64,000 nt of DNA from an uncultured Gemmatimonadaceae bacterium (GCA_963781585.1 CAWAGQ010000004.1:992001-1056000); one strand, 5' to 3'. Shown: positions 14,412 through 28,943, counted from the first letter of the stretch. The notes: a model not told the origin generated them from the letters alone. A program made the numbers and translations.

Positions 14412-14453
14412 CAACGCGCCCTGCGCGCAGTCGGCAGCGCGCAGGGCGTGTTG
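14412..14453. terminator. Long hairpin between convergent genes (likely bidirectional terminator)
   Basis: CAACGCGCCCTGCGCGC pairs with GCGCGCAGGGCGTGTTG (17 bp, one G-U), 8-nt loop, starting right after the amidohydrolase stop. Confidence 0.7.
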
Positions 14454-14502
14454 GTAGGTGGGGTGTGCTCGGCCGTCGTTGATGCGGCTGCGCGCGACGC
14501 GC

Positions 14503-15069
14503 TTACGGCTGGCCACGCCCGATTGCGTGGGCTCGCTGAATCAACCCGCCGACCGCGGAGCGGATCGATGCCGCGCCATTCCGCCCTGTCGTTGGCCTCC
14601 CTGAGATTACGCGGCCGTAACCGCCGTAGACCGTGCCGACTCGTACCACGCGCCCGGCACGGTCGTACACCCGCCCATCCCTTCCGAGATACCCGATCAG
14701 CCGGCCGTTACGGTCATACACCGCGTTGCGGTTGTTCACAACGGTGCTGCGGCCATTGTAGCGATCGTCGCGGTCATGATCGTTGGCGACACGATCATCC
14801 CGGTTGTTATCGTTCCGGCCCGCAACGCTTCGATCGACGTAGTCGCAACGGCCATTGTGGTTCACGTCGTAACAGACGTTACGGTCGGCGACGCGTGCCT
14901 GGTCGTTGCATCGATTCTGCTTGGCCAGACCGGGGGGACAGCGGTCGTTTCTCGCGATGCCCGGCGGCACGTTTCGACTGCGTCCCTGGGCGCCGGCCGG
15001 AGAGACGACGAGGAGCATTGACGCGCCCACCAGCGAAATCTGCGTCATTTGACGAAGCATGTTGTTCAT
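14503..15069 (-). CDS. Hypothetical secreted Arg/Asp/Asn-rich protein with PPGxA motifs
   Basis: GGAGG RBS before ATG 15069, signal peptide (AGA-Q), VPPGIAR and CPPGLAK, repeated YDxxGR units. Confidence 0.75.
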   Translation of the reverse strand: MNNMLRQMTQISLVGASMLLVVSPAGAQGRSRNVPPGIARNDRCPPGLAKQNRCNDQARVADRNVCYDVNHNGRCDYVDRSVAGRNDNNRDDRVANDHDRDDRYNGRSTVVNNRNAVYDRNGRLIGYLGRDGRVYDRAGRVVRVGTVYGGYGRVISGRPTTGRNGAASIRSAVGGLIQRAHAIGRGQP

Positions 15070-15450
15070 GGGATTCCTCCGGTTGTGCCTTCTGCAGGCA
15101 TCGGCACAAGGTTCATGTATGGTGCCAGAGGAAGCTCCATGAGACACCAGCGCATAAGTGCCTGTGCAACAGCACCTTGCATTTACCACCTTCAAGCGAC
15201 TTCTGGGCGCGTGTCCCGCCGCGGGCACGCGCCCTGTCCGTCCCAGTGTACACCAGCGGCGTCGTGTACCAGCCTCCGGACTGAGCAGGCCTAACGCGCA
15301 TGTCCCCTTCCGGGCGGCGCAGCGCCAGTGTGCCGCGCCTCTCTTGACGCTTCTTCGTGGATCAGATCGTCACCTCCGCACCCCTACCTGGGCGACGTCC
15401 CGATGCGCAACACCGCCATACGGAATACGACGGTCGCTGGGAAGAGGCTG

Positions 15451-17049
15451 CTACGTCACGCCCCTGACACCCCGTCGTTCGCTGGCGACGATCTCGTGTG
15501 CCGCCAGCAGGCCGCACGCGCCCGCATGACTGGCCGGATGCGTACCGGTGCCGCAGAGCCACAGACCGGGGAGCGGCGTGGCATATCGGGCACACTGCGG
15601 CACCGGTCGCATGAACAGCGCCTGGTCCAGTGCCAGTTCGCCATGGGTCAGACTTCCCTCGGCGACGCCGAAGCGCTCCTCGAGGTCCGCCGGGGTGAGG
15701 ATCCAGCGCGCCAGGATGCGGTCCCGGAAGTCCCACGCTACCTGCGCCAGCCTCGCTTCCACCAAATCGCCCAGGGCGGCGCGTTCCCTGTCCCCCCAGC
15801 CTCCGTGCCGTCGGTAGGGTACGTGGTGGACGTCCACCGACAGAACGTGACGCTCCGGCGGAGCGAGCGCCGCATCGAGCAGCGACGGCACGGTAAAGGT
15901 GAGAGCCGGCTCGGCCGGCATCTGACCGAATTTCGCATCATCGTATGCGCGTTCCAATCCCATGACGCCGGGCGACACCACGATGGTTCCACGCGCAAGT
16001 CCGTTCTCCCACGGTTTGCCATCGGTCGAGAACACGGGCAGGCCGTCCAGTGCGAAGTGGACCCGCGCCGTCGCCCCGCGCATGCGGATGTTGTCCACCG
16101 CCCGCAGGAGATCTGCATCGAGCCACATCGGGTCGACCAGACCGAAGGTCCGTCGCGGATCCAATCCGGAGACCACAAGCGGCGATGAAAGCTCCTCTCC
16201 GCTGTGGAGGGCGACGCCTGACACGCGACCGTCCCGAATCGTGATTTGCGCGACGTCGGCGTTCGTCCGGATGCGCGTGCCGGCGGCCTGCGCCGAGGCC
16301 GCGATCGCGTCGGCGAGCGCACCGCGTCCTCCCGCCACGACGTGTCGCATTCCGATGTGGCCGGTTCGCCAGCCCACGTGTCGGTGAAGGAACACGAAAC
16401 CCGTACCGCTCGACTGTGGACCATGCTGGATCCCATGGATACCCAGCGTGGCCAGCGCCCCCGCCAGCGATGGCTCGTCAACCCACTCGCCGACCAGGTC
16501 GGCGACAGGCATCGGAATGGCGCGCGTCACGTCCATCATGCGCCGCCGACCGAGCGCGCGGAGACGCCGTCCCACGCGCAGGATGGAGAGCAGCTCGGCG
16601 GTCGACTCGCTCTGCACGTTGGGCGCGGAGCGCGAATACAGGAGCTCCAGCAGACGTGACGCCGATCCGACGAGATCGCAGAAGCCTCGCCAGCGCGCGG
16701 TGTCCCGTTGCGACAGGCCGGCGACCGAGACCGCACGCGCCGCGCGCTCCGTGACGGCGATCGGCGGCGCCGCCGCACAGACGGCAACGAGACCGACCGG
16801 GGCGTCCGTTACGCGAAGCCCATGACGGGCCAGTCGCAGGTCGCGCGGGAGCTGTCTCGGCATCCATCCGGGATCATCGCCGCAGACGTTGACGCGATAT
16901 CCAGGATGGAACTCTTCGGTGGCGGCGGTCCCACCGATGGTCTCGCGCCGTTCGAGGACCAGCACGGTTTTCCCGCGGCGCGCGAGAAAGGCCGCGGTGG
17001 TGAGGCCGTTCACGCCGGCGCCGACGATGATCGCGTCGAACCGGCTCAC
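15451..17049 (-). CDS. Phytoene dehydrogenase-like FAD-dependent oxidoreductase, divergent paralog
   Basis: IIVGAGVNG Rossmann motif, LERRETIGG, ERAYDDAKFG, LCGTGTHP. GTG start overlaps the upstream stop (GTGA). Confidence 0.9.
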   Translation of the reverse strand: MSRFDAIIVGAGVNGLTTAAFLARRGKTVLVLERRETIGGTAATEEFHPGYRVNVCGDDPGWMPRQLPRDLRLARHGLRVTDAPVGLVAVCAAAPPIAVTERAARAVSVAGLSQRDTARWRGFCDLVGSASRLLELLYSRSAPNVQSESTAELLSILRVGRRLRALGRRRMMDVTRAIPMPVADLVGEWVDEPSLAGALATLGIHGIQHGPQSSGTGFVFLHRHVGWRTGHIGMRHVVAGGRGALADAIAASAQAAGTRIRTNADVAQITIRDGRVSGVALHSGEELSSPLVVSGLDPRRTFGLVDPMWLDADLLRAVDNIRMRGATARVHFALDGLPVFSTDGKPWENGLARGTIVVSPGVMGLERAYDDAKFGQMPAEPALTFTVPSLLDAALAPPERHVLSVDVHHVPYRRHGGWGDRERAALGDLVEARLAQVAWDFRDRILARWILTPADLEERFGVAEGSLTHGELALDQALFMRPVPQCARYATPLPGLWLCGTGTHPASHAGACGLLAAHEIVASERRGVRGVT

Positions 17050-18617
17050 GAGCGGAGAATCTCCATCGCCGCGAGCCGTCCGCCCGCGCCCATGATTCCG
17101 CCGCCGGGATGGGTGCCCGATCCGCACTGGAAGAGCCCTCGCACGGGGGTGCGATACTGCGCCCATCCCGGCGCCGGACGCAGGAAGAACAGCTGATGCA
17201 AGGCCAGCTCACCCTGGAAGATGTTGCCATCGGTGAGTCCGGTGATGCGTTCGATATCGGCCGGCGTGAGCACCTGACGACCCAGGATCGCGCGCCGGAT
17301 ATTCGGTGCAAAGCGCTCCAACGCGTCGATCACCGCGTCGCCGAAGGCCTCGCGCCTTGCGTCGTTCCAGCCACCCTGGATGTCGGACGGCGCGTACTGG
17401 ACGAAGATCGACATCACGTGCCGCCCCGGCGGTGCCATGTGTGGATCGATCATCGAGGGAATGATCACGTCCATGTATGGGCGTCGGGAGAAGCCGCCGT
17501 GTTTGGCGTCGTCGTATGCCCGTTCGACATACTCGAGCGTCGGAGAGATCGAGATGGCTCCACGCAGATGCGGACCGAAGCCGGGCAGGCAGGTGAAGTC
17601 CGGCAGCTCCCCCAACGCCAGGTTCACCTTCCCCGAAGATCCGCGGATCTTGTACCGCCGGATGTCTTCGACGAAGTCGTCGGGGAGAGTGTTGGCGTCG
17701 AGCAGTGTGAGAAAGGTGCGCTTGGGGTCGAGCGACGACACGACGATGTCGGCCTGGAGCTCGTCGCCGCCGGCCAGCGCTACGCCGGTGACGCGACCGC
17801 TCTTGGTGGTGATGCGCGCGACCTCTGCGTCGGTGCGAATCGTCGCGCCGAAGCCCTGCGCGGCGCGCGCGATGGCCGAAGAAATCGCGCCTGTGCCTCC
17901 CTTGGCGAATCCCCAGGCACGGAACGCGCCATCGATTTCGCCCATGTAGTGGTGCAGGAGCACATAGGCCGATCCCGGCGTGCGCGGCCCCATGAACGTA
18001 CCGATAATGCCGCTCGCCGATCTGGTTGCCTTGAGCACGTCGCTCTCGAACCACTCATCGAGAAAGTCGGCCGAGCTCATGGTCATCAACTTGTACAGGG
18101 CGTGAAACTGCCGCGGGTTCATTGACCGAAAATGCTTCCCGAGGCGAAGCAGGCCGCGCAGGTCCCGCGGGGAGAGTGAAGCCGGGTCGGGCGGCACCAT
18201 GCCGATGATGGGTTTCACCGCCATCGCCATGAGTCCCATCAGGCGGCCGTATTCGTCATACGCGTCCGCGTCACGCAGCGAATGGCGCGCGATCTCGCGT
18301 CTTGTCAGATCGTGGTCTGGCCACGACGCGAGGTAATCATTGTCTTCCATCGGCGTGACGGTACTCTCCAGCGGCAGGATCTCGAGACCGTAGCGCGGCA
18401 GTTCGAGGTCGCGAATGATCACGGGCCGCAGAAGGCTGACGACATACGAGAACACCGAGAACTTGAATCCCGGGAACAGCTCTTCGGTGACGGCCGCGCC
18501 GCCAACCAGCGGCCGCCGCTCCAGGACCAGCACCCGCTTGCCGCCGCGTGCCAGGTAGGCCGCGTTCACCAGGCCGTTGTGGCCTCCGCCTACCACGATG
18601 ACGTCGTAGCGGCTCAT
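17046..18617 (-). CDS. Phytoene dehydrogenase-like (PYROXD2-like) FAD-dependent oxidoreductase
   Basis: VVGGGHNG, GGAAVTEELFPGF, YVVSLL, YVLLHHYMGE, GNIFQG, CGSGTHPGGG. ATGA overlap with the upstream gene. Confidence 0.93.
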   Translation of the reverse strand: MSRYDVIVVGGGHNGLVNAAYLARGGKRVLVLERRPLVGGAAVTEELFPGFKFSVFSYVVSLLRPVIIRDLELPRYGLEILPLESTVTPMEDNDYLASWPDHDLTRREIARHSLRDADAYDEYGRLMGLMAMAVKPIIGMVPPDPASLSPRDLRGLLRLGKHFRSMNPRQFHALYKLMTMSSADFLDEWFESDVLKATRSASGIIGTFMGPRTPGSAYVLLHHYMGEIDGAFRAWGFAKGGTGAISSAIARAAQGFGATIRTDAEVARITTKSGRVTGVALAGGDELQADIVVSSLDPKRTFLTLLDANTLPDDFVEDIRRYKIRGSSGKVNLALGELPDFTCLPGFGPHLRGAISISPTLEYVERAYDDAKHGGFSRRPYMDVIIPSMIDPHMAPPGRHVMSIFVQYAPSDIQGGWNDARREAFGDAVIDALERFAPNIRRAILGRQVLTPADIERITGLTDGNIFQGELALHQLFFLRPAPGWAQYRTPVRGLFQCGSGTHPGGGIMGAGGRLAAMEILRS

Positions 18618-19816
18618 GCGCGCTTGCGCTCCGGGTTGAAGAACGGCAGTGAGGTGACGACGGCGGGTGCGCGCTTGCGGTGGTGTTCCACCGTGATCTC
18701 GATCTCCAGCCGCATGCCGGGTGCAGCCTGATCTCGCTCGAGGTGTGCGAGTGCGATGTACCGTTTCAGCAGGGGCGACCAGCACCCACTGGTGGCGTAT
18801 CCAACCTGCGTTCCGTCGGCGCCTCCGTAGAGCGGAACGCTGGTGCGCCATGCCGTGGTGGGGAGCTTTGGCGGGAGCCCGACGTCCGCGTACAGCGACT
18901 CCAGGGCCTCCCAGTCCACGTCGACTCCCATGAGCTTCCACGCCGCCCCGCGCGCCCGTTCGGCCATCAGGGCCGAGCGACCTTCGAACGCCGGTTTGTC
19001 GAACGCCACGGTCCAGTCGAGGGAGAGCTCGAGCGGCGTCGACGTCTGCTGGTCGATTACCGCCTTGCGCGCCGACACGTAGTCGACGTCGAGGAGAATG
19101 AGCCCGGCTTCGGTACGAGCCACGTCGAGCGCCAGAATACCCGCCGGAACCAGGCCGTACGGTCCTCCCGCATCCACGACGGCGTCCCAGACGGGAATGG
19201 CGTGCTCCGCATCCATCCAGATCTCGTAGCCCAGGTCGCCGGTGTACCCTGTCCGCGTGATGTTGACGGGAACGCCGCGAATCAGCGCCGTCGTCAGGCG
19301 GAAGAACTTCACCGCGGTCAGATCGCTCTCGGCCGCGACTTCGAGAATCACCCGCGCGCTCGGGCCTTGCAGGGCGAGCGCCGCGATAGCGTCGGACACA
19401 TCATCCACGTTCACCTCGAGTCCGCGGGCATGGTCCCCGAGCCAGCGGTAGTTCGGATCGGCCGATGTCAGACGGAAGAAGTCCTCGCCCAGTCGTGACA
19501 CGGTGCCGTCATCGAGCACCTTGCCGGCGGGGTCGCACCACGGGGTGTACAGCACCTGCCCCACACGCGAGGCGCCTACATCGCGCGTGACTACGCGGTC
19601 GAGAAGCCGCGCGGCGTCGCGGCCGCGAACGTGGTACTTGTAGAGTGGCGAGATGTCGAACAGGGCCGCCGTGCTCCGCACGGCGTGATACTCGCGGTCG
19701 TGCTGGGGTTCGTACGAGCTCGCGACAAGGTACCCGGCCCACCGGCGCCAGTTGAGCGTACGGCAGAGCGGCGCGGTACGGGCGTGAAACGGCGTCCCGG
19801 GCAGCGACCAGGTCAC
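18614..19816 (-). CDS. Aminomethyltransferase (GcvT-like, THF-binding) family protein
   Basis: TPFHART, LFDISPL, GKVLDDG, LALQGP, TRTGYTGDLGYEIW, ARTEAG, GYATSG. Start set at GTG 19816. Confidence 0.92.
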   Translation of the reverse strand: MTWSLPGTPFHARTAPLCRTLNWRRWAGYLVASSYEPQHDREYHAVRSTAALFDISPLYKYHVRGRDAARLLDRVVTRDVGASRVGQVLYTPWCDPAGKVLDDGTVSRLGEDFFRLTSADPNYRWLGDHARGLEVNVDDVSDAIAALALQGPSARVILEVAAESDLTAVKFFRLTTALIRGVPVNITRTGYTGDLGYEIWMDAEHAIPVWDAVVDAGGPYGLVPAGILALDVARTEAGLILLDVDYVSARKAVIDQQTSTPLELSLDWTVAFDKPAFEGRSALMAERARGAAWKLMGVDVDWEALESLYADVGLPPKLPTTAWRTSVPLYGGADGTQVGYATSGCWSPLLKRYIALAHLERDQAAPGMRLEIEITVEHHRKRAPAVVTSLPFFNPERKRA

Positions 19817-19826
19817 GAAGGACGTC

Positions 19827-20459
19827 TCACGTGACCGAGAAGAGCTCCGGATGTCGCGGCACCACGCTTCCGAAGAAAGTCTTGAGCTGCACAAGATCGC
19901 CGGCCAAATCGCCCGTTGGCCAGTACGGCGCGCCGATCACCACCGCCTTGCGGCAGTAGTCCAGCCCGACTGGCACGATGGGCGCGTGCGCGCCACTTGC
20001 GAGATGCCAGAACCCCGAGCGCCACTCGCGCACTCGCTTGCGCGTGCCCTCCGGCGCCAGCGCGAGTGCGACCGCGTCCCGACGATCGAATTCCATGACC
20101 CATTGATCGATCACGTGATGTCGCCCTGACCGAACGACCGGAATCCCCCCCAACCATCGCAGCAACCAGCCGAGTGGCGCACGAAAGATCGTGTGCTTGC
20201 CGAACCATCGGGCGTCGAGGTCGATCGCCAGCGCCGCGAACAGCCCGACCAGAAAGTCCCAGTTCGACGTGTGCGGAGCCACGATGATCACCACCTTTGC
20301 CACATCGGGGAAGTTCCCCTCGACCCGCCAATCGAAGAGTGCCATTCCCAGCGCCCCGATCGCCCGCAACGTGCGACTCCCTCGTCGGGGGATCGACGGC
20401 GGAAGGACGGGAACGCGCGCCAGGCCGGTAGAGCGGAGATGGGGGTGGCAATTGTGCAA
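19827..20459 (-). CDS. Lysophospholipid acyltransferase family (PlsC-like)
   Basis: PHTSNWD (HxxxxD) and APEGTR motifs. True start uncertain. Confidence 0.88.
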   Translation of the reverse strand: MHNCHPHLRSTGLARVPVLPPSIPRRGSRTLRAIGALGMALFDWRVEGNFPDVAKVVIIVAPHTSNWDFLVGLFAALAIDLDARWFGKHTIFRAPLGWLLRWLGGIPVVRSGRHHVIDQWVMEFDRRDAVALALAPEGTRKRVREWRSGFWHLASGAHAPIVPVGLDYCRKAVVIGAPYWPTGDLAGDLVQLKTFFGSVVPRHPELFSVT

Positions 20460-24951: not shown

Positions 24952-26145
24952 TCACCGGTTGCCAACGTTGTATTTCGCGAGGATTTCACGCACGCGATCG
25001 AGCGGAAGCGCCTGCACCGTCCGGCCGCGGCTGGTGACGGTCGTGGCCATGAACAGCGAGTTGTAGATCGCTTCCTCGGTTGCTTCCACCACGCCCTCGA
25101 ACAACCCCGACATGTCGTCGTTCGACAGATCCTCGAGCTGCCGCCGCAACGGACCGGACGCGGTACGCGTCTGCGCCGGGCGTCGTCGCACCGACTCGGC
25201 TGTCGAAAAGGCGATGACGTAGTCGCCCGATCCGTTCGAGGCCGACGACCCGGTGCGTGCGAGTCCCATGAGGGCCCGCGCCCCCAGACGATCGAGGTTT
25301 CGATCCGAGAGCGGCGCATCGGTGGCCACGACGATCATGATCGATCCGTCTCCGTGGTCGCGCTCCGACTGGTTCCTGAAGGCATACTGTCCGAGCTCCT
25401 TGCCGACGGGCGCTCCCAGCACCTGGAGGATTCCGCCGAAGTTGGTCTGCACCAGCACCCCTACCGTGTATCCGCCTAACGATGCCGGCAGGATGCGGGA
25501 CGAGGTCCCGATGCCGCCTTTCCATCCGAACGCCACCGTGCCCGCCCCCGCCCCGACCGCCCCTTCCGCCACCGGTCCGTTGCTGGCGGACTCGAGCGCC
25601 TGACGGACGTGCTCGGGGCGGATTGGCCGTGACCGAATGGCATTGAGCTGCCCGTCGTTGGTTTCTCCGACCACCGGGTTGATCGACTGCACGCTCTGCA
25701 TCCCCGGCTGGTCCAGTAGCCAGGCCACCATCGCGTCGGCTGCCTGCCACACGCACAGGGTACACGTGAGCAGGATGGGCGTTTCCAGTTCCCCCAGCTC
25801 GGTGACCTGCGTCACGCCGAGCAACTTGCCGAACGCGTTGCCGACGTGAACCGCAGCCGGCACCCGATCGAAGAACAGGTTGCCCTCGTGGGGCAGGACG
25901 GCGGTCACGCCGGTGTGCACCGAGTCGCCCTCAATGACCGTGGCGTGTCCAACGCGCACGCCGGCCACGTCGGTGATAGCGTTGTTCGCCCCCGGTTTGA
26001 ATACGCCCGGGGCGACGCCCAGGTCACGGGCGCGCACGCGCGCGGAGCTGGAAGGGACGGACTGCGCGGTGACCGCGCCGGGATGAAGCATCGACAGGAG
26101 GGCGGTCGCGAGCGCCGCACCGCCCAGAGGGCACAGGTATCGCAT
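24952..26145 (-). CDS. P1/S58 family peptidase (DmpA-like aminopeptidase)
   Basis: NAITDVAGVRVGH, PVVGETND, GAVGAGAG, KGGIGTSSR, DG/SIMIV autocleavage site, GSGDY. Confidence 0.93.
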   Translation of the reverse strand: MRYLCPLGGAALATALLSMLHPGAVTAQSVPSSSARVRARDLGVAPGVFKPGANNAITDVAGVRVGHATVIEGDSVHTGVTAVLPHEGNLFFDRVPAAVHVGNAFGKLLGVTQVTELGELETPILLTCTLCVWQAADAMVAWLLDQPGMQSVQSINPVVGETNDGQLNAIRSRPIRPEHVRQALESASNGPVAEGAVGAGAGTVAFGWKGGIGTSSRILPASLGGYTVGVLVQTNFGGILQVLGAPVGKELGQYAFRNQSERDHGDGSIMIVVATDAPLSDRNLDRLGARALMGLARTGSSASNGSGDYVIAFSTAESVRRRPAQTRTASGPLRRQLEDLSNDDMSGLFEGVVEATEEAIYNSLFMATTVTSRGRTVQALPLDRVREILAKYNVGNR

Positions 26146-26223
26146 GGACCATCCGCGGCATCGGTTGCCCGCGATATAGTGGACGCCCCGGCGACGGCGC
26201 AAGCCGCGACCGGTCACTGCCGC

Positions 26224-28726
26224 TCAGGTCCGACGGAGTGCAGCCGCCGGTTCCACGCGGGCGGTGCGCCGCGCCGGGAGGTAGCAGGCCACCAGGGCAA
26301 CCGACGTGAACAGCGTCGCCACCGATGAATAGGTCAGGACGTCCACCGGCGTCACGCCCCACAGCAGCCTGGTCAACACCCGGGTCAGCGCGGCGGCCAA
26401 GACCAATCCGGTTCCCACGCCCCACAGCACCAGGCGCGCTCCATCGCGAACTACGAGTGCGACGATAGTCGACGCGTGCGCCCCGAGTGCCATGCGGATC
26501 GCGAGTTCCCGCGAGCGGCGCGCGACGGCATAGGCGCATACTCCGTAGATGCCGATCAGGGCCAGGACGAGCGCGCAGAGGGCGAATGAACCTACCACGC
26601 CTCCGAGCATCCGGACGAGGGAGAGTCCATCCTGTCGTTCCGTCGCCAGCAGGCGGACCCCCGCCGGCGCGAGCTCGGGGTCGACCGAGTGCAGCGCGTC
26701 GACCACCCGAGCCGCAACCGCGTCTGGATCGCCGGCAGGTCCGCACCAGCACGCCGGTATTCCACGCCGTGGCCTGTCGCTCGGAGAGGTACAGGTCCGG
26801 ATCGGGATCGGCGTTCACGATCCCCATGCGGCTGGACAGGCGGCGGACATCGCGCACGACGCCGACCACCGTGAGCGGTGTCCCTAACGCGCCGATCTGC
26901 ACCTGCTGGCCAAGCGGAGACGCGCCGCCCCACACCAGCCGCGCGAGGCGTGCGCTGACCATGACGACTGGTTCGCTCTCGGCACGATCGCCGCGATCAA
27001 AGCTCCGCCCCTGCGTCACCCCCATCCCCATCACGCGAAAGTACTCGTCCGACACCACCAGGAACTGCGGCGACGGCTGAACGCCCGCCGCAACGCTCCG
27101 CGTCACGTCGGCTGGAAGGAAGAGGCGACGGTCCGGCGTGTTCGGTAAGGCACCGGTGCTGTCGGTCCCACGATTGCGCCGCGCGCCGCGCTCGAGGTTC
27201 GTGGAGTCCGCGATGAGCTCATTCAACCCACCCTCGCGCGCCACACCCTGGATTCCCGGTGTGGCCTCGAGCCGCGCGGCGAGCTGCTCCTCAAAGGTCT
27301 GGCGCTGGTTCGCACCGGCGTACCCGGTGGAATCCAGGTTGACGGAGAGCCGGAGGACACGCTCGGGGTGATAGCCCGGGTCGAGCGCCGTCACGTTGTG
27401 GTAGGTACGCGCGAGCAGCGCCGCACCGACAGAGAGCACGATGGTGAGCGCCAGTTCCGCCACGATGACGCTGCGGCCACGGCGGGTGCCGCGCCCGGCG
27501 GTCGCCGACAGATCCCCGCTCTCCTTGAGGGTGTCCGTGAGATCCACTCTGGTGGCCACCAGCGCCGGCAACAGGCCGACGCCCGCCACCGTGAGGAGAG
27601 CGATGGTGAAGGTGAAGGCCAGGACGCGCCAGTCGATCCCCAGCCGGATCCACGATGGAAGATTCCCGTGCGGTACCACGATCCCGACCAGGTGCACCCC
27701 CCAGTCAGCCAGCAGCGCGCCGAGCGCACCGGCGAGGAGAGCCAACAGCAGACTCTCGGTGAGATTCTGGCGAATCAGCCGCGCGCGAGAGGCCCCCAGC
27801 GATGCGCGAATCGCCATCTCCGCACGACGTTCTTCGGCACGCGCGAGAAGCAGGTTGGCCACGTTGGAGCAGGCCACGAGCAGCACCACGAGAGCGGCTC
27901 CGATCACCAACGCAGCGAACGATCCCCACGCTCGGGCTCCACGGTCCACCATGCCGTCCCGCACCGCGAGGGACCAGCCACCATAGTCGGCTGGTCTTGC
28001 GGCCGCGAGCTGCTGTCCAACCAGTCGTATTTCTTCGCGGGCACGGCTCAGCGTAGCGCCGGCGGCCAACCTTGCGATCGCCGAGTAGTTGCGATCGACC
28101 TCGCCAACATTCGATGTGGCAGGTGGAGCCAGCGGAAGCCAGACGTCCGAACGCTCGTCGAACCGAAAACCCGGTGGCATCACCCCCACGATCCGGCGGA
28201 TGCTTCCATTCACCGTGAGGCTCTGTCCTATGACATCGGCGCGCGCCGCGTAGTACTGTCGCCACAGCGAATCGCCGATGAGAACGATGGGCTCGCGATT
28301 GGTAATCTCCTGTGGCGTGAACGGGCGTCCTACGGCCGGCGCCGTCCGCAGCACGGCCAGGAGGTCCCCATCGATCTCCGTACCGGTGACCCCGATCGCC
28401 TGGCCGCCGACCGACAACCGGGAATACGTCTCCCTGAAGACCGCGACGCGTTCGAACGCCGTAACGCTCTGCCGTACGGCCTCGATGCCCGATAGAGAGA
28501 CGCGGCTGAAGGCAATGTAGGCCCGCGGATTCGTCTCGCTCAGCGCCACGATTCTTCGCGAATCCGCATATGGGAGCGGGCGAAGGAGCGCACTGTTCAC
28601 GAAACTGAAGAAGGTGGTCACCACGCCGATTCCCACGGCAAGCGTGGCCACGGTGGTTGCCGCAACGCCCGGACGCGCCACAATCCCGCGCAGTGCGACG
28701 CGAATATCATGACGGGTGGCGTCCAT
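26224..28726 (-). pseudogene. Duplicated orphan ABC permease (ADOP-like) with a one-base frameshift near 26737-26739
   Basis: The N-terminal frame reads as permease up to ...TGVLVRT. The C-terminal FtsX part (RSRELAIRMALGA...RRTARVEPAAALR) is in another frame. Removing one base from CGG ACC T GCC GGC GAT CCA restores VRTAGDPDAVAARVVDAL and an 833-aa ORF. Could be a sequencing error. Confidence 0.85.
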
Positions 28727-28943
28727 CTGGCCTCCTCGGCGAAGCGGACTCCATGATCATAGCGCCCGTCTCCGGACGCGGGCGAGGTAGGCCATGCTCG
28801 CACTGGTCCGCCGGGAATCGACCCGCGAGACGACCAGGTCGTCGCGTGGCGAATTGGTGGTGGCTCGGGCTCTCCGATGGCCGATCACAGGTCCCAACGG
28901 TGCGCGCATGGTCCGGGTCCCACTGCCCCATTAGCGTTCGCGG

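Follow-up and report, generated by a model that had tools for sequence, protein, structure and literature searches.

To our knowledge, flavin demethylases coupled to tetrahydrofolate (THF) have been described only with flavin domains of the DAO family. In dimethylglycine oxidase (DMGO), dimethylglycine dehydrogenase (DMGDH) and sarcosine dehydrogenase (SARDH), such a domain is joined through an FAO_M linker to a GcvT domain within a single chain. Heterotetrameric sarcosine oxidase contains a second nucleotide-binding Rossmann module that performs no catalytic turnover, and its genes are often encoded together with purU. Here we describe a locus of an uncultured Gemmatimonadaceae bacterium from soil, located on a stretch of DNA of 64,000 nucleotides (GCA_963781585.1, CAWAGQ010000004.1:992001-1056000; hereafter the window), where a GcvT-like protein is encoded together with two paralogous flavoproteins, FP1 and FP2. 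We consider it fairly likely that this trio constitutes a THF-coupled flavin N-demethylase made of separate subunits, which would resemble the dimethylglycine and sarcosine oxidases while being built on a different flavoprotein family.

The genes of the trio are arranged as follows, positions being counted from the first nucleotide of the window:

18614-19816, minus strand: GcvT-family gene (P0001), GTG start, 400 amino acids; proposed one-carbon acceptor subunit, predicted to bind THF
17046-18617, minus strand: FP1 flavoprotein gene (P0002), ATG start, 523 amino acids; PYROXD2-like, proposed catalytic amine-oxidising subunit
15451-17049, minus strand: FP2 flavoprotein gene (P0003), GTG start, 532 amino acids; paralogue of FP1, proposed auxiliary subunit binding flavin adenine dinucleotide (FAD)
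18614-18617, minus strand: ATGA overlap between the stop codon of the GcvT gene and the start codon of FP1, read directly in the sequence
17046-17049, minus strand: GTGA overlap between the stop codon of FP1 and the start codon of FP2, read directly in the sequence

A preliminary description of this DNA had given the same three genes, coupled by the same overlaps, and direct reading bears this out. It had also reported that no carotenoid genes and no gcvP or gcvH are nearby. In agreement with this, a Pfam scan of the 42 other open reading frames (ORFs) of the window gave no match to carotenoid, GcvH or GcvP families; the sole GCV_H gene of the assembly lies on contig C3, not near the trio, and its sole SQS_PSY (phytoene/squalene synthase) gene on contig C13. 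A better-scoring GCV_T gene of the same genome is present on contig C12.

The trio is kept far beyond this lineage. A scan based on an alignment of the FP1 family, with one genome per species, yielded 68 loci in which FP1 is 58-76% identical to that of the window. These loci are labelled Acidobacteriota (35), Gemmatimonadota (12), Chloroflexota (5), Actinomycetota (5), Pseudomonadota (3), and Dormiibacterota, Fidelibacterota, Bdellovibrionota, Zixiibacteriota and Planctomycetota (one locus each), with three loci being unclassified. A GcvT orthologue (46-67% identity), on the same strand or divergently oriented, is present in 60 of the 68 loci, and a second, divergent flavoprotein gene lies directly downstream of FP1 in 61. 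Of the eight loci without GcvT, six are cut by contig ends, and the remaining two, L074 and L080, carry a GcvT orthologue elsewhere in the genome, with no other module genes around it. Contig ends likewise cut six of the seven loci without a second flavoprotein, L034 being the one that truly does not have it. The distance between FP1 and FP2 is at most 10 nucleotides in 48 of 63 loci, and that between GcvT and FP1 in 22 of 30 same-strand loci, figures that rest on start codons assigned in this analysis. Within the Gemmatimonadota, 60 of 201 sampled genomes have a GcvT orthologue, and these genomes carry FP1 orthologues at an identity of at least 62% (the sample counts include the unpublished genomes G182 and G057, on which alone no claim depends). 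Both flavoproteins are intact in 18 of the 20 GcvT-centred Gemmatimonadota loci; 17 of these 18 share the gene order of the window and one has a divergent GcvT gene. Because it is conserved across phyla, the arrangement of the trio is more than chance. Our literature search, supplements aside, found no paper that describes a GcvT-FP1-FP2 trio.

Individual loci show their own peculiarities. At L015 (G046:C2:824114-825683) the FP1 orthologue is spread over two frames, covering residues 2-243 and 230-522, which reflects a frameshift or an assembly error. L016 (G142:C1:1631474-1633093) has one flavoprotein gene beside its GcvT orthologue; the first ~70 residues of the encoded protein are 80% identical to FP1, the remainder is FP2-like (46%) and its tree position is with FP2, and this hybrid gene probably arose by a deletion between the tandem paralogues. 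L034, located on a contig labelled as a Burkholderiales metagenome-assembled genome (MAG), contains Gemmatimonadota-like GcvT (61%) and FP1 (72%) orthologues and no second flavoprotein within 7 kb downstream; either the contig is possibly mis-binned or FP2 has genuinely been lost.

The connection between the GcvT-like protein and FP1 extends to gene fusion. P0282 (957 amino acids) is a clean fusion of a GcvT part (residues 5-405) and an FP1 part (residues 429-947), P0283 has the same GcvT-FP1 architecture and is 63% identical to P0282, and P0307 is a third, truncated fusion of this kind. The GcvT-fused proteins group with the FP1 orthologues in the tree, and an approximately unbiased (AU) test of their placement inside versus beside the FP1 clade gave p = 0.21. 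A different fusion is found in the database proteins P0155, P0289 and P0290, which bear an N-terminal GFA (glutathione-dependent formaldehyde-activating) domain and group with eukaryotic PYROXD2 in the tree. As a separate observation, P0304 resembles a tandem of the GcvT-like protein of the trio and a second GcvT-family domain.

In the case of the GcvT-like protein, P0001, the Pfam domains are GCV_T (PF01571, 5.4e-62) and GCV_T_C (PF08669, 1.7e-12), with DUF1989 being absent. It scores below the curated cut-offs for GcvT (176 versus 235.85 bits on TIGR00528, and 216 versus 300 bits on NF001567). Its top NCBIfam match is the C-terminal THF half of trimethylamine N-oxide (TMAO) demethylase, Tdm (NF053776), with 272 bits (cut-off 1100), the match being confined to model positions 388-761. 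A sequence search of the PDB also placed TMAO demethylase first (9q59, E 6.7e-56), with true T-proteins at 1e-46 and below; in the same search P0001 aligned to the C-terminal domains of the DMGO, DMGDH and SARDH structures (E 4e-28 to 2e-25) and to the C-terminus of SoxA (E 8e-27). About 100 of the 112 longer relatives of P0001 are DUF1989-GcvT proteins of the Tdm type. According to passages of a cryo-electron microscopy study from 2026 (PMC13619132), the THF domain of Tdm binds THF and converts channelled formaldehyde to methylene-THF, and residues R480, F582, F672 and K782 are near the folate. We mapped these residues to P0001 through the PDB search alignment with 9q59 and counted their conservation over 50 orthologues: R480 corresponds to R78 (conserved in 49 of 50), F582 to F172 (50 of 50) and K782 to R397 (50 of 50). 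The DD pair at positions 102-103 and the motif RTGYTGDLGYE are kept as well, such that each of these features is found in 48-50 of the 50 orthologues; the second Asp of the pair is presumably the catalytic residue of T-proteins. The assignment of P0001 as a THF subunit in the preliminary description thus agrees with the presence of THF-binding hallmarks and with the nearest relative being the formaldehyde-capturing domain of Tdm, and the subunit looks like a formaldehyde-capturing THF site.

Proteins of the GcvT family may also act without a flavoprotein, as DmdA and LigM do, and it could be argued that P0001 is itself a demethylase which transfers an onium or O-methyl methyl group to THF, while the flavoproteins act on the carbon skeleton before or after this step. 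P0001 matches the models of both enzymes weakly (DmdA, 114 bits; LigM, 67 bits). Furthermore, a GcvT-family gene resembling the dimethylsulfoniopropionate demethylase gene dmdA, with 338-400 bits against a cut-off of 410, adjoins the trio in three of the scanned loci (L027:13962-15182, L051:11316-12428 and L095:2525-3505). However, P0001 scores far higher on the models of Tdm, GcvT and SoxA (160 bits on soxA, whose cut-off is 1164), its obligatory pairing or fusion with FP1 is typical of flavin-dependent THF-coupled oxidases, and the GFA-PYROXD2-like fusions hint that formaldehyde is a product of the flavoprotein. We regard this alternative as quite improbable. A still more sceptical view would be that the genes are simply co-inherited, the GcvT-like protein having a non-catalytic or repair role, like YgfZ, for redox enzymes that do not perform one-carbon chemistry. 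The GcvT fold does occur in YgfZ/CAF17 proteins, and a neighbouring GcvT-family gene in L049 matches the YgfZ domain model; yet none of the eight NCBIfam matches of P0001 is to a YgfZ model, the residues that contact THF in the transferases, and those of catalytic type, are retained in P0001, and the linkage with PurU in 10 loci argues for a real one-carbon flux, so that we find such a role very improbable.

FP1 matches the Pfam family Amino_oxidase at 8e-17, FP2 matches it too, and the DAO matches of both proteins are confined to the N-terminal Rossmann stretch. The AlphaFold2 model of FP1, which was built from 50 orthologues (pLDDT 87.8, pTM 0.89), has the CrtI/amine-oxidase fold; its sole poorly defined stretch, residues 227-234, lies inside the near-invariant HHYMGEIDGAFRAWG motif. 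The 50 orthologues of FP1 share 132 invariant columns, and its invariant motifs include SYVVSLLRP, HHYMGEIDG and GSSGKVN. Compared with proteins named PYROXD2 by their sources, FP1 shows 31-41% identity and full-length similarity, and the ESM-Atlas clusters nearest to FP1 are named PYROXD2. It should be noted that this family has no curated model and that membership was judged by similarity and grouping in trees. In a quick tree, eukaryotic PYROXD2 and the GFA-fused relatives are sister to FP1 and the GcvT-fused proteins (support 99), and in a more careful tree, described below, both are again placed away from the FP2 side (branch 100/99). With regard to function, passages of PMC13352909 link human PYROXD2 variants to N2-acetyl,N6,N6-dimethyllysine and to urinary trimethylamine, which agrees with the association between such variants and the levels of N-methylated metabolites cited in the preliminary description, and PMC8777681 describes the PYROXD2 reaction as unknown.

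Automatic annotation assigns FP1 and FP2 to a CrtO-like 'phytoene desaturase family', according to which they would be carotenoid or isoprenoid desaturases or ketolases and GcvT an unrelated neighbour. Gemmatimonadota make carotenoids, the top NCBIfam model of both proteins is CrtO ketolase (NF045689), and the first Foldseek match of the FP1 model is the carotenoid desaturase 4rep (TM 0.78, 19% identity), the next matches being NicA2, 6-hydroxynicotine oxidase, putrescine oxidase and monoamine oxidase (MAO). However, the scores of FP1 and FP2 are far below the cut-offs, both on the CrtO model (302 and 204 bits versus 1000) and on crtI_fam, TIGR02734 (117 and 87 bits versus 238). In addition, the SQS_PSY gene of this genome is adjoined on contig C13 by a separate CrtI-like gene, a distant paralogue (28% identical), GcvT and FP1 occur linked or as a fusion under ten phylum labels, and the recurrent neighbours in 88 loci include no carotenoid gene. 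A carotenoid function is in our view extremely improbable, and the opinion put forward in the preliminary description, namely that the flavoproteins belong to the PYROXD2 family and that a 'phytoene desaturase' label is misleading, is upheld by their grouping with PYROXD2 and by their failure on the curated carotenoid models.

Besides the trio, ~35 sampled genomes without the GcvT orthologue of the trio encode 'solo' PYROXD2-like proteins, a subfamily that shares 49-53% identity with FP1. The solo flavoprotein directly adjoins a Rieske oxygenase in L102 and L105-L107, which are loci of other Gemmatimonadota genomes, and several solo loci as well as L108 also hold a DAO gene of the N-methyl-L-tryptophan oxidase (MTOX) type, an APC permease or an S9 peptidase. 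In one operon, the solo flavoprotein is accompanied by an amino-acid permease, a Rieske oxygenase and an MTOX-type gene (311 bits, cut-off 257). The solo loci give the impression of operons for stepwise demethylation that have no THF subunit.

Aligned over 530 columns, FP1 and FP2 share 39% identity (E 7e-106). The preliminary description had characterised FP2 as the more degenerate protein at the motifs GHNG, YVVSLL and GNIFQG, and exactly those changes appear in the alignment: the positions of GGGHNG, SYVVSLLRP and DGNIFQGEL in FP1 are occupied by GAGVNG, CGDDPGWMP and EGSLTHGEL, respectively, in FP2. In a careful maximum-likelihood tree (71 rows, LG+G4; the long rows P0302, L092_B and L097_B were omitted after the quick tree), the second genes are all on one side of a branch with support 100/99, which was recovered in 100% of 200 bootstrap trees. 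Over 24 loci, the distances between FP2 proteins are 2.3 times those between FP1 proteins, and the two sets correlate (r = 0.79). The FP2 alignment, which comprises 49 orthologues after the L072 row was dropped for an internal stop, has 17 invariant columns. The dinucleotide and C-terminal FAD motifs of FP2 are kept in most lineages, G[GA]GHN[GA]L being present in 37 of the 49 proteins; the FP2 of the window is at the degenerate end, its GAGVNGL occurring in 2 of the 49. The loose blocks of FP2 (41-100, 121-140, 201-240 and 341-360) are the same blocks that are most constrained in FP1. Judged from these patterns, FP2 is an old, fast-evolving paralogue of the slowly evolving FP1 that retains FAD motifs and has loose substrate-side segments, and FP1 is probably the catalytic subunit, with FP2 as an auxiliary subunit that would still bind FAD.

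The genes surrounding the trio provide a further line of evidence. Flanking ORFs were clustered over 88 loci, of which L033 and L039 duplicate L014 and L020. The recurrent neighbours are an APC amino-acid permease (20 loci), a Rieske oxygenase (15 loci), the formyl-THF deformylase PurU (10 loci, above curated cut-offs), an S-adenosylmethionine-dependent methyltransferase (9 loci), an S9 peptidase (9 loci) and an aldehyde dehydrogenase (5 loci). A conserved protein of 515 amino acids, which belongs to no Pfam or NCBIfam family, is encoded after FP1-FP2-PurU and in the same direction in nine Acidobacteriota loci (e.g., L053:12269-13813). The usual order in Acidobacteriota is methyltransferase (minus strand), permease (plus), GcvT (minus), and then FP1, FP2, PurU and the 515-residue protein (all plus). 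The Rieske oxygenases are of two kinds: the best solved relatives of the first are 3n0q, the stachydrine demethylase 3vca and 4qup, and that of the second is the carnitine monooxygenase 6y8j; both kinds are sub-threshold on the GbcA model. No gene for an electron-transferring flavoprotein or similar recurs among the neighbours of the trio. Together, the neighbours point to the catabolism of betaines and N-methyl amino acids and to the disposal of one-carbon units through THF. An N-methylated amino acid or a betaine-derived amine is the substrate suggested by the permeases, by the Rieske partners and, in the solo subfamily, by the MTOX-type partner.

The neighbours also bear on the possibility that the three proteins cooperate on another C-N bond, such as that of an N-substituted glycine or a polyamine-like amine, with the GcvT-like protein handling an aminomethyl or one-carbon fragment as in glycine cleavage. 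On the one hand, the Amino_oxidase superfamily contains deaminating oxidases, among them the putrescine oxidase and MAO that are fold neighbours of FP1, and the GcvT family includes the true aminomethyltransferase, on whose model (NF001567) P0001 reaches 216 bits. On the other hand, GcvH, the obligatory aminomethyl carrier, is encoded neither near the trio here nor among the recurrent neighbours of the 88 loci; the nearest relatives in the GcvT family capture formaldehyde or accept methyl groups (Tdm, DMGDH, SoxA and DmdA); and the neighbouring genes encode demethylase-type Rieske oxygenases, PurU and the MTOX-type oxidase. We consider this possibility unlikely.

The mechanism that we propose for a THF-coupled N-demethylase is modelled on the established ones of dimethylglycine oxidase and heterotetrameric sarcosine oxidase. 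The substrate would be a tertiary or secondary amine, most likely one derived from a betaine or an amino acid carrying an N-methyl group, and FP1 would use FAD to oxidise its N-methyl C-H, giving an iminium ion. THF on the GcvT-like subunit, with which the flavoproteins would be physically associated, would then receive the iminium or an equivalent of formaldehyde, yielding 5,10-methylene-THF without any escape of formaldehyde; where PurU is present, the one-carbon unit could be released as formate. FP2 would serve as a structural or electron-passing partner of FP1, much as one half of subunit alpha in sarcosine oxidase binds a nucleotide without being catalytic. While the gene structure, the family assignments, the conserved linkage, the fusions and the gene context are read from the sequences, the chemistry of this scheme, the sharing of tasks by FP1 and FP2, their complex with the GcvT-like subunit, the class of substrate and the electron acceptor are inferred. 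The term 'split THF-dependent N-demethylase' used in the preliminary description can be retained in part: THF-dependent demethylation is favoured by the THF hallmarks, the GcvT-FP1 fusions and the demethylation context, but 'split' holds as an analogy, as the flavoproteins are not the DAO-family domain of DMGDH and SARDH.

Several observations weigh against the trio being an N-demethylase of this kind. First, both the profile search (CrtO model) and the fold search (4rep) give carotenoid enzymes as the nearest characterised relatives of FP1. Second, our literature search found no biochemical data for any member of the trio and, supplements aside, no paper on the enzymology of PYROXD2. Third, Tdm residue F672 corresponds to W268 in P0001, a position that is aromatic in 26 of the 50 orthologues. 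Fourth, the genome analysed here has no PurU, GbcA-like Rieske oxygenase or SoxB above cut-off, and the supportive context therefore derives from other lineages; the flanking genes also vary widely from locus to locus. Fifth, almost all comparison sequences are MAG contigs, and some of the phylum labels may therefore be wrong. Sixth, most of the apparent FP1-FP2 fusions may be frameshift artefacts: P0275-P0278 have unaligned middles, P0274 is the only clean one, and as evidence for a heterodimer these fusions were mostly discounted. Finally, the trio is present in 15 of the 18 Gemmatimonadota genomes that contain DMGDH/SARDH-type genes (FAO_M). The idea that it replaces DMGDH or SARDH was ruled out by this coexistence and, because of it, neither dimethylglycine nor sarcosine is an obvious substrate; no FAO_M gene was found in the genome analysed here.

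Upstream of the trio, the window contains one more closely spaced gene:

19827-20459, minus strand: PlsC-like acyltransferase gene (Pfam Acyltransferase, 1.4e-11), outside the conserved module

As the end of this gene lies only 10 nucleotides upstream of the GcvT start, it is probably co-transcribed with the trio in this genome. It has no counterpart among the 88 related loci and was therefore ruled out as a member of the module, and so were the M28 and S58 peptidases and the amidohydrolase, which recur in few related loci only. The segment of ~1 kb that separates the end of FP2 from the amidohydrolase gene (14412-15450) has no frame with coding-type G+C at third codon positions, is not similar to the syntenic locus L014 and gives no match in Rfam. 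Further away, a MacB/FtsX-type permease gene on the minus strand is apparently split: the long frame at 26024-28756 encodes one FtsX domain along with two MacB_PCD domains, and the second FtsX domain is in the other, overlapping frame at 26224-26814, possibly owing to a frameshift. No riboswitch or other RNA was detected near the operon at the Rfam gathering threshold, in the window and in four loci, and a promoter and terminator scan gave no signal above shuffled expectation. The G+C content of the window is ~67%, and the assembly comprises 5.7 Mb in 17 contigs (93.5% complete, 7.2% contaminated).

A wider proposal, which we put forward tentatively and at slightly below even confidence, is that the PYROXD2 family as a whole consists of demethylating oxidases of N-methyl (tertiary or secondary) amines and amino acids. 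The trio would then form an undescribed three-subunit, THF-coupled class, with FP2 as a decayed scaffold or electron relay, acting after Rieske betaine demethylases in a series that leads from quaternary to tertiary, secondary and primary amines. If so, human PYROXD2 would demethylate, for example, derivatives of N6,N6-dimethyllysine, which would explain both the metabolite associations and the disease caused by loss of function; this provides an assayable hypothesis for a protein whose gene is a mitochondrial disease gene and a locus in genome-wide association studies of metabolites. For bacteria, a demethylase function of the trio would mean that a second, independently built version of THF-coupled flavin demethylation exists on the CrtI/PYROXD2 scaffold in about ten phyla, offering a widespread route by which methylated nitrogen compounds are turned over in soil and in the sea, and annotations as 'phytoene desaturase' or 'glycine cleavage T protein' would be corrected in thousands of cases.

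The comparison with known systems may be summarized protein by protein. P0001 has the same GCV_T plus GCV_T_C architecture as GcvT proper; unlike the latter, it fails the GcvT cut-offs and has no GcvH or GcvP nearby. Hidden Markov models, the PDB search and the set of longer proteins all place Tdm (9q59; PMC13619132) nearest to the GcvT-like protein, but the catalytic part of Tdm is a Zn-containing DUF1989 domain, which P0001 does not have, and not a flavoprotein. FP1 and FP2 have their overall fold and FAD-binding motifs in common with CrtI, CrtO and CrtD (4dgk, 4rep), from which they differ in scoring below the family cut-offs, in the absence of carotenoid context and in their linkage to THF and methylamine genes. 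Human PYROXD2, a mitochondrial orphan flavoprotein, is of the same family as FP1 and lies on the FP1 side of the FP1/FP2 split, although it is encoded by a single gene and is not known to have a GcvT partner. The heterotetrameric sarcosine oxidase SoxBDAG (2gag, 1vrq) resembles the trio as proposed here: it is built from several subunits, among which are a flavoprotein that carries out the catalysis, a further Rossmann module that binds a nucleotide, and a THF domain of the GcvT-like kind; in contrast to it, the trio has no homologues of SoxB, SoxD or SoxG, and its Rossmann modules are full CrtI-like paralogues. Finally, the trio is predicted to work like DMGO, DMGDH and SARDH (1pj5, 4p9s, 5l46) in that a flavin unit would oxidise the amine and a THF site with the GcvT fold would trap the one-carbon unit. 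It differs from them in having two paralogous flavoprotein subunits of the CrtI/PYROXD2 type and a separate GcvT protein.

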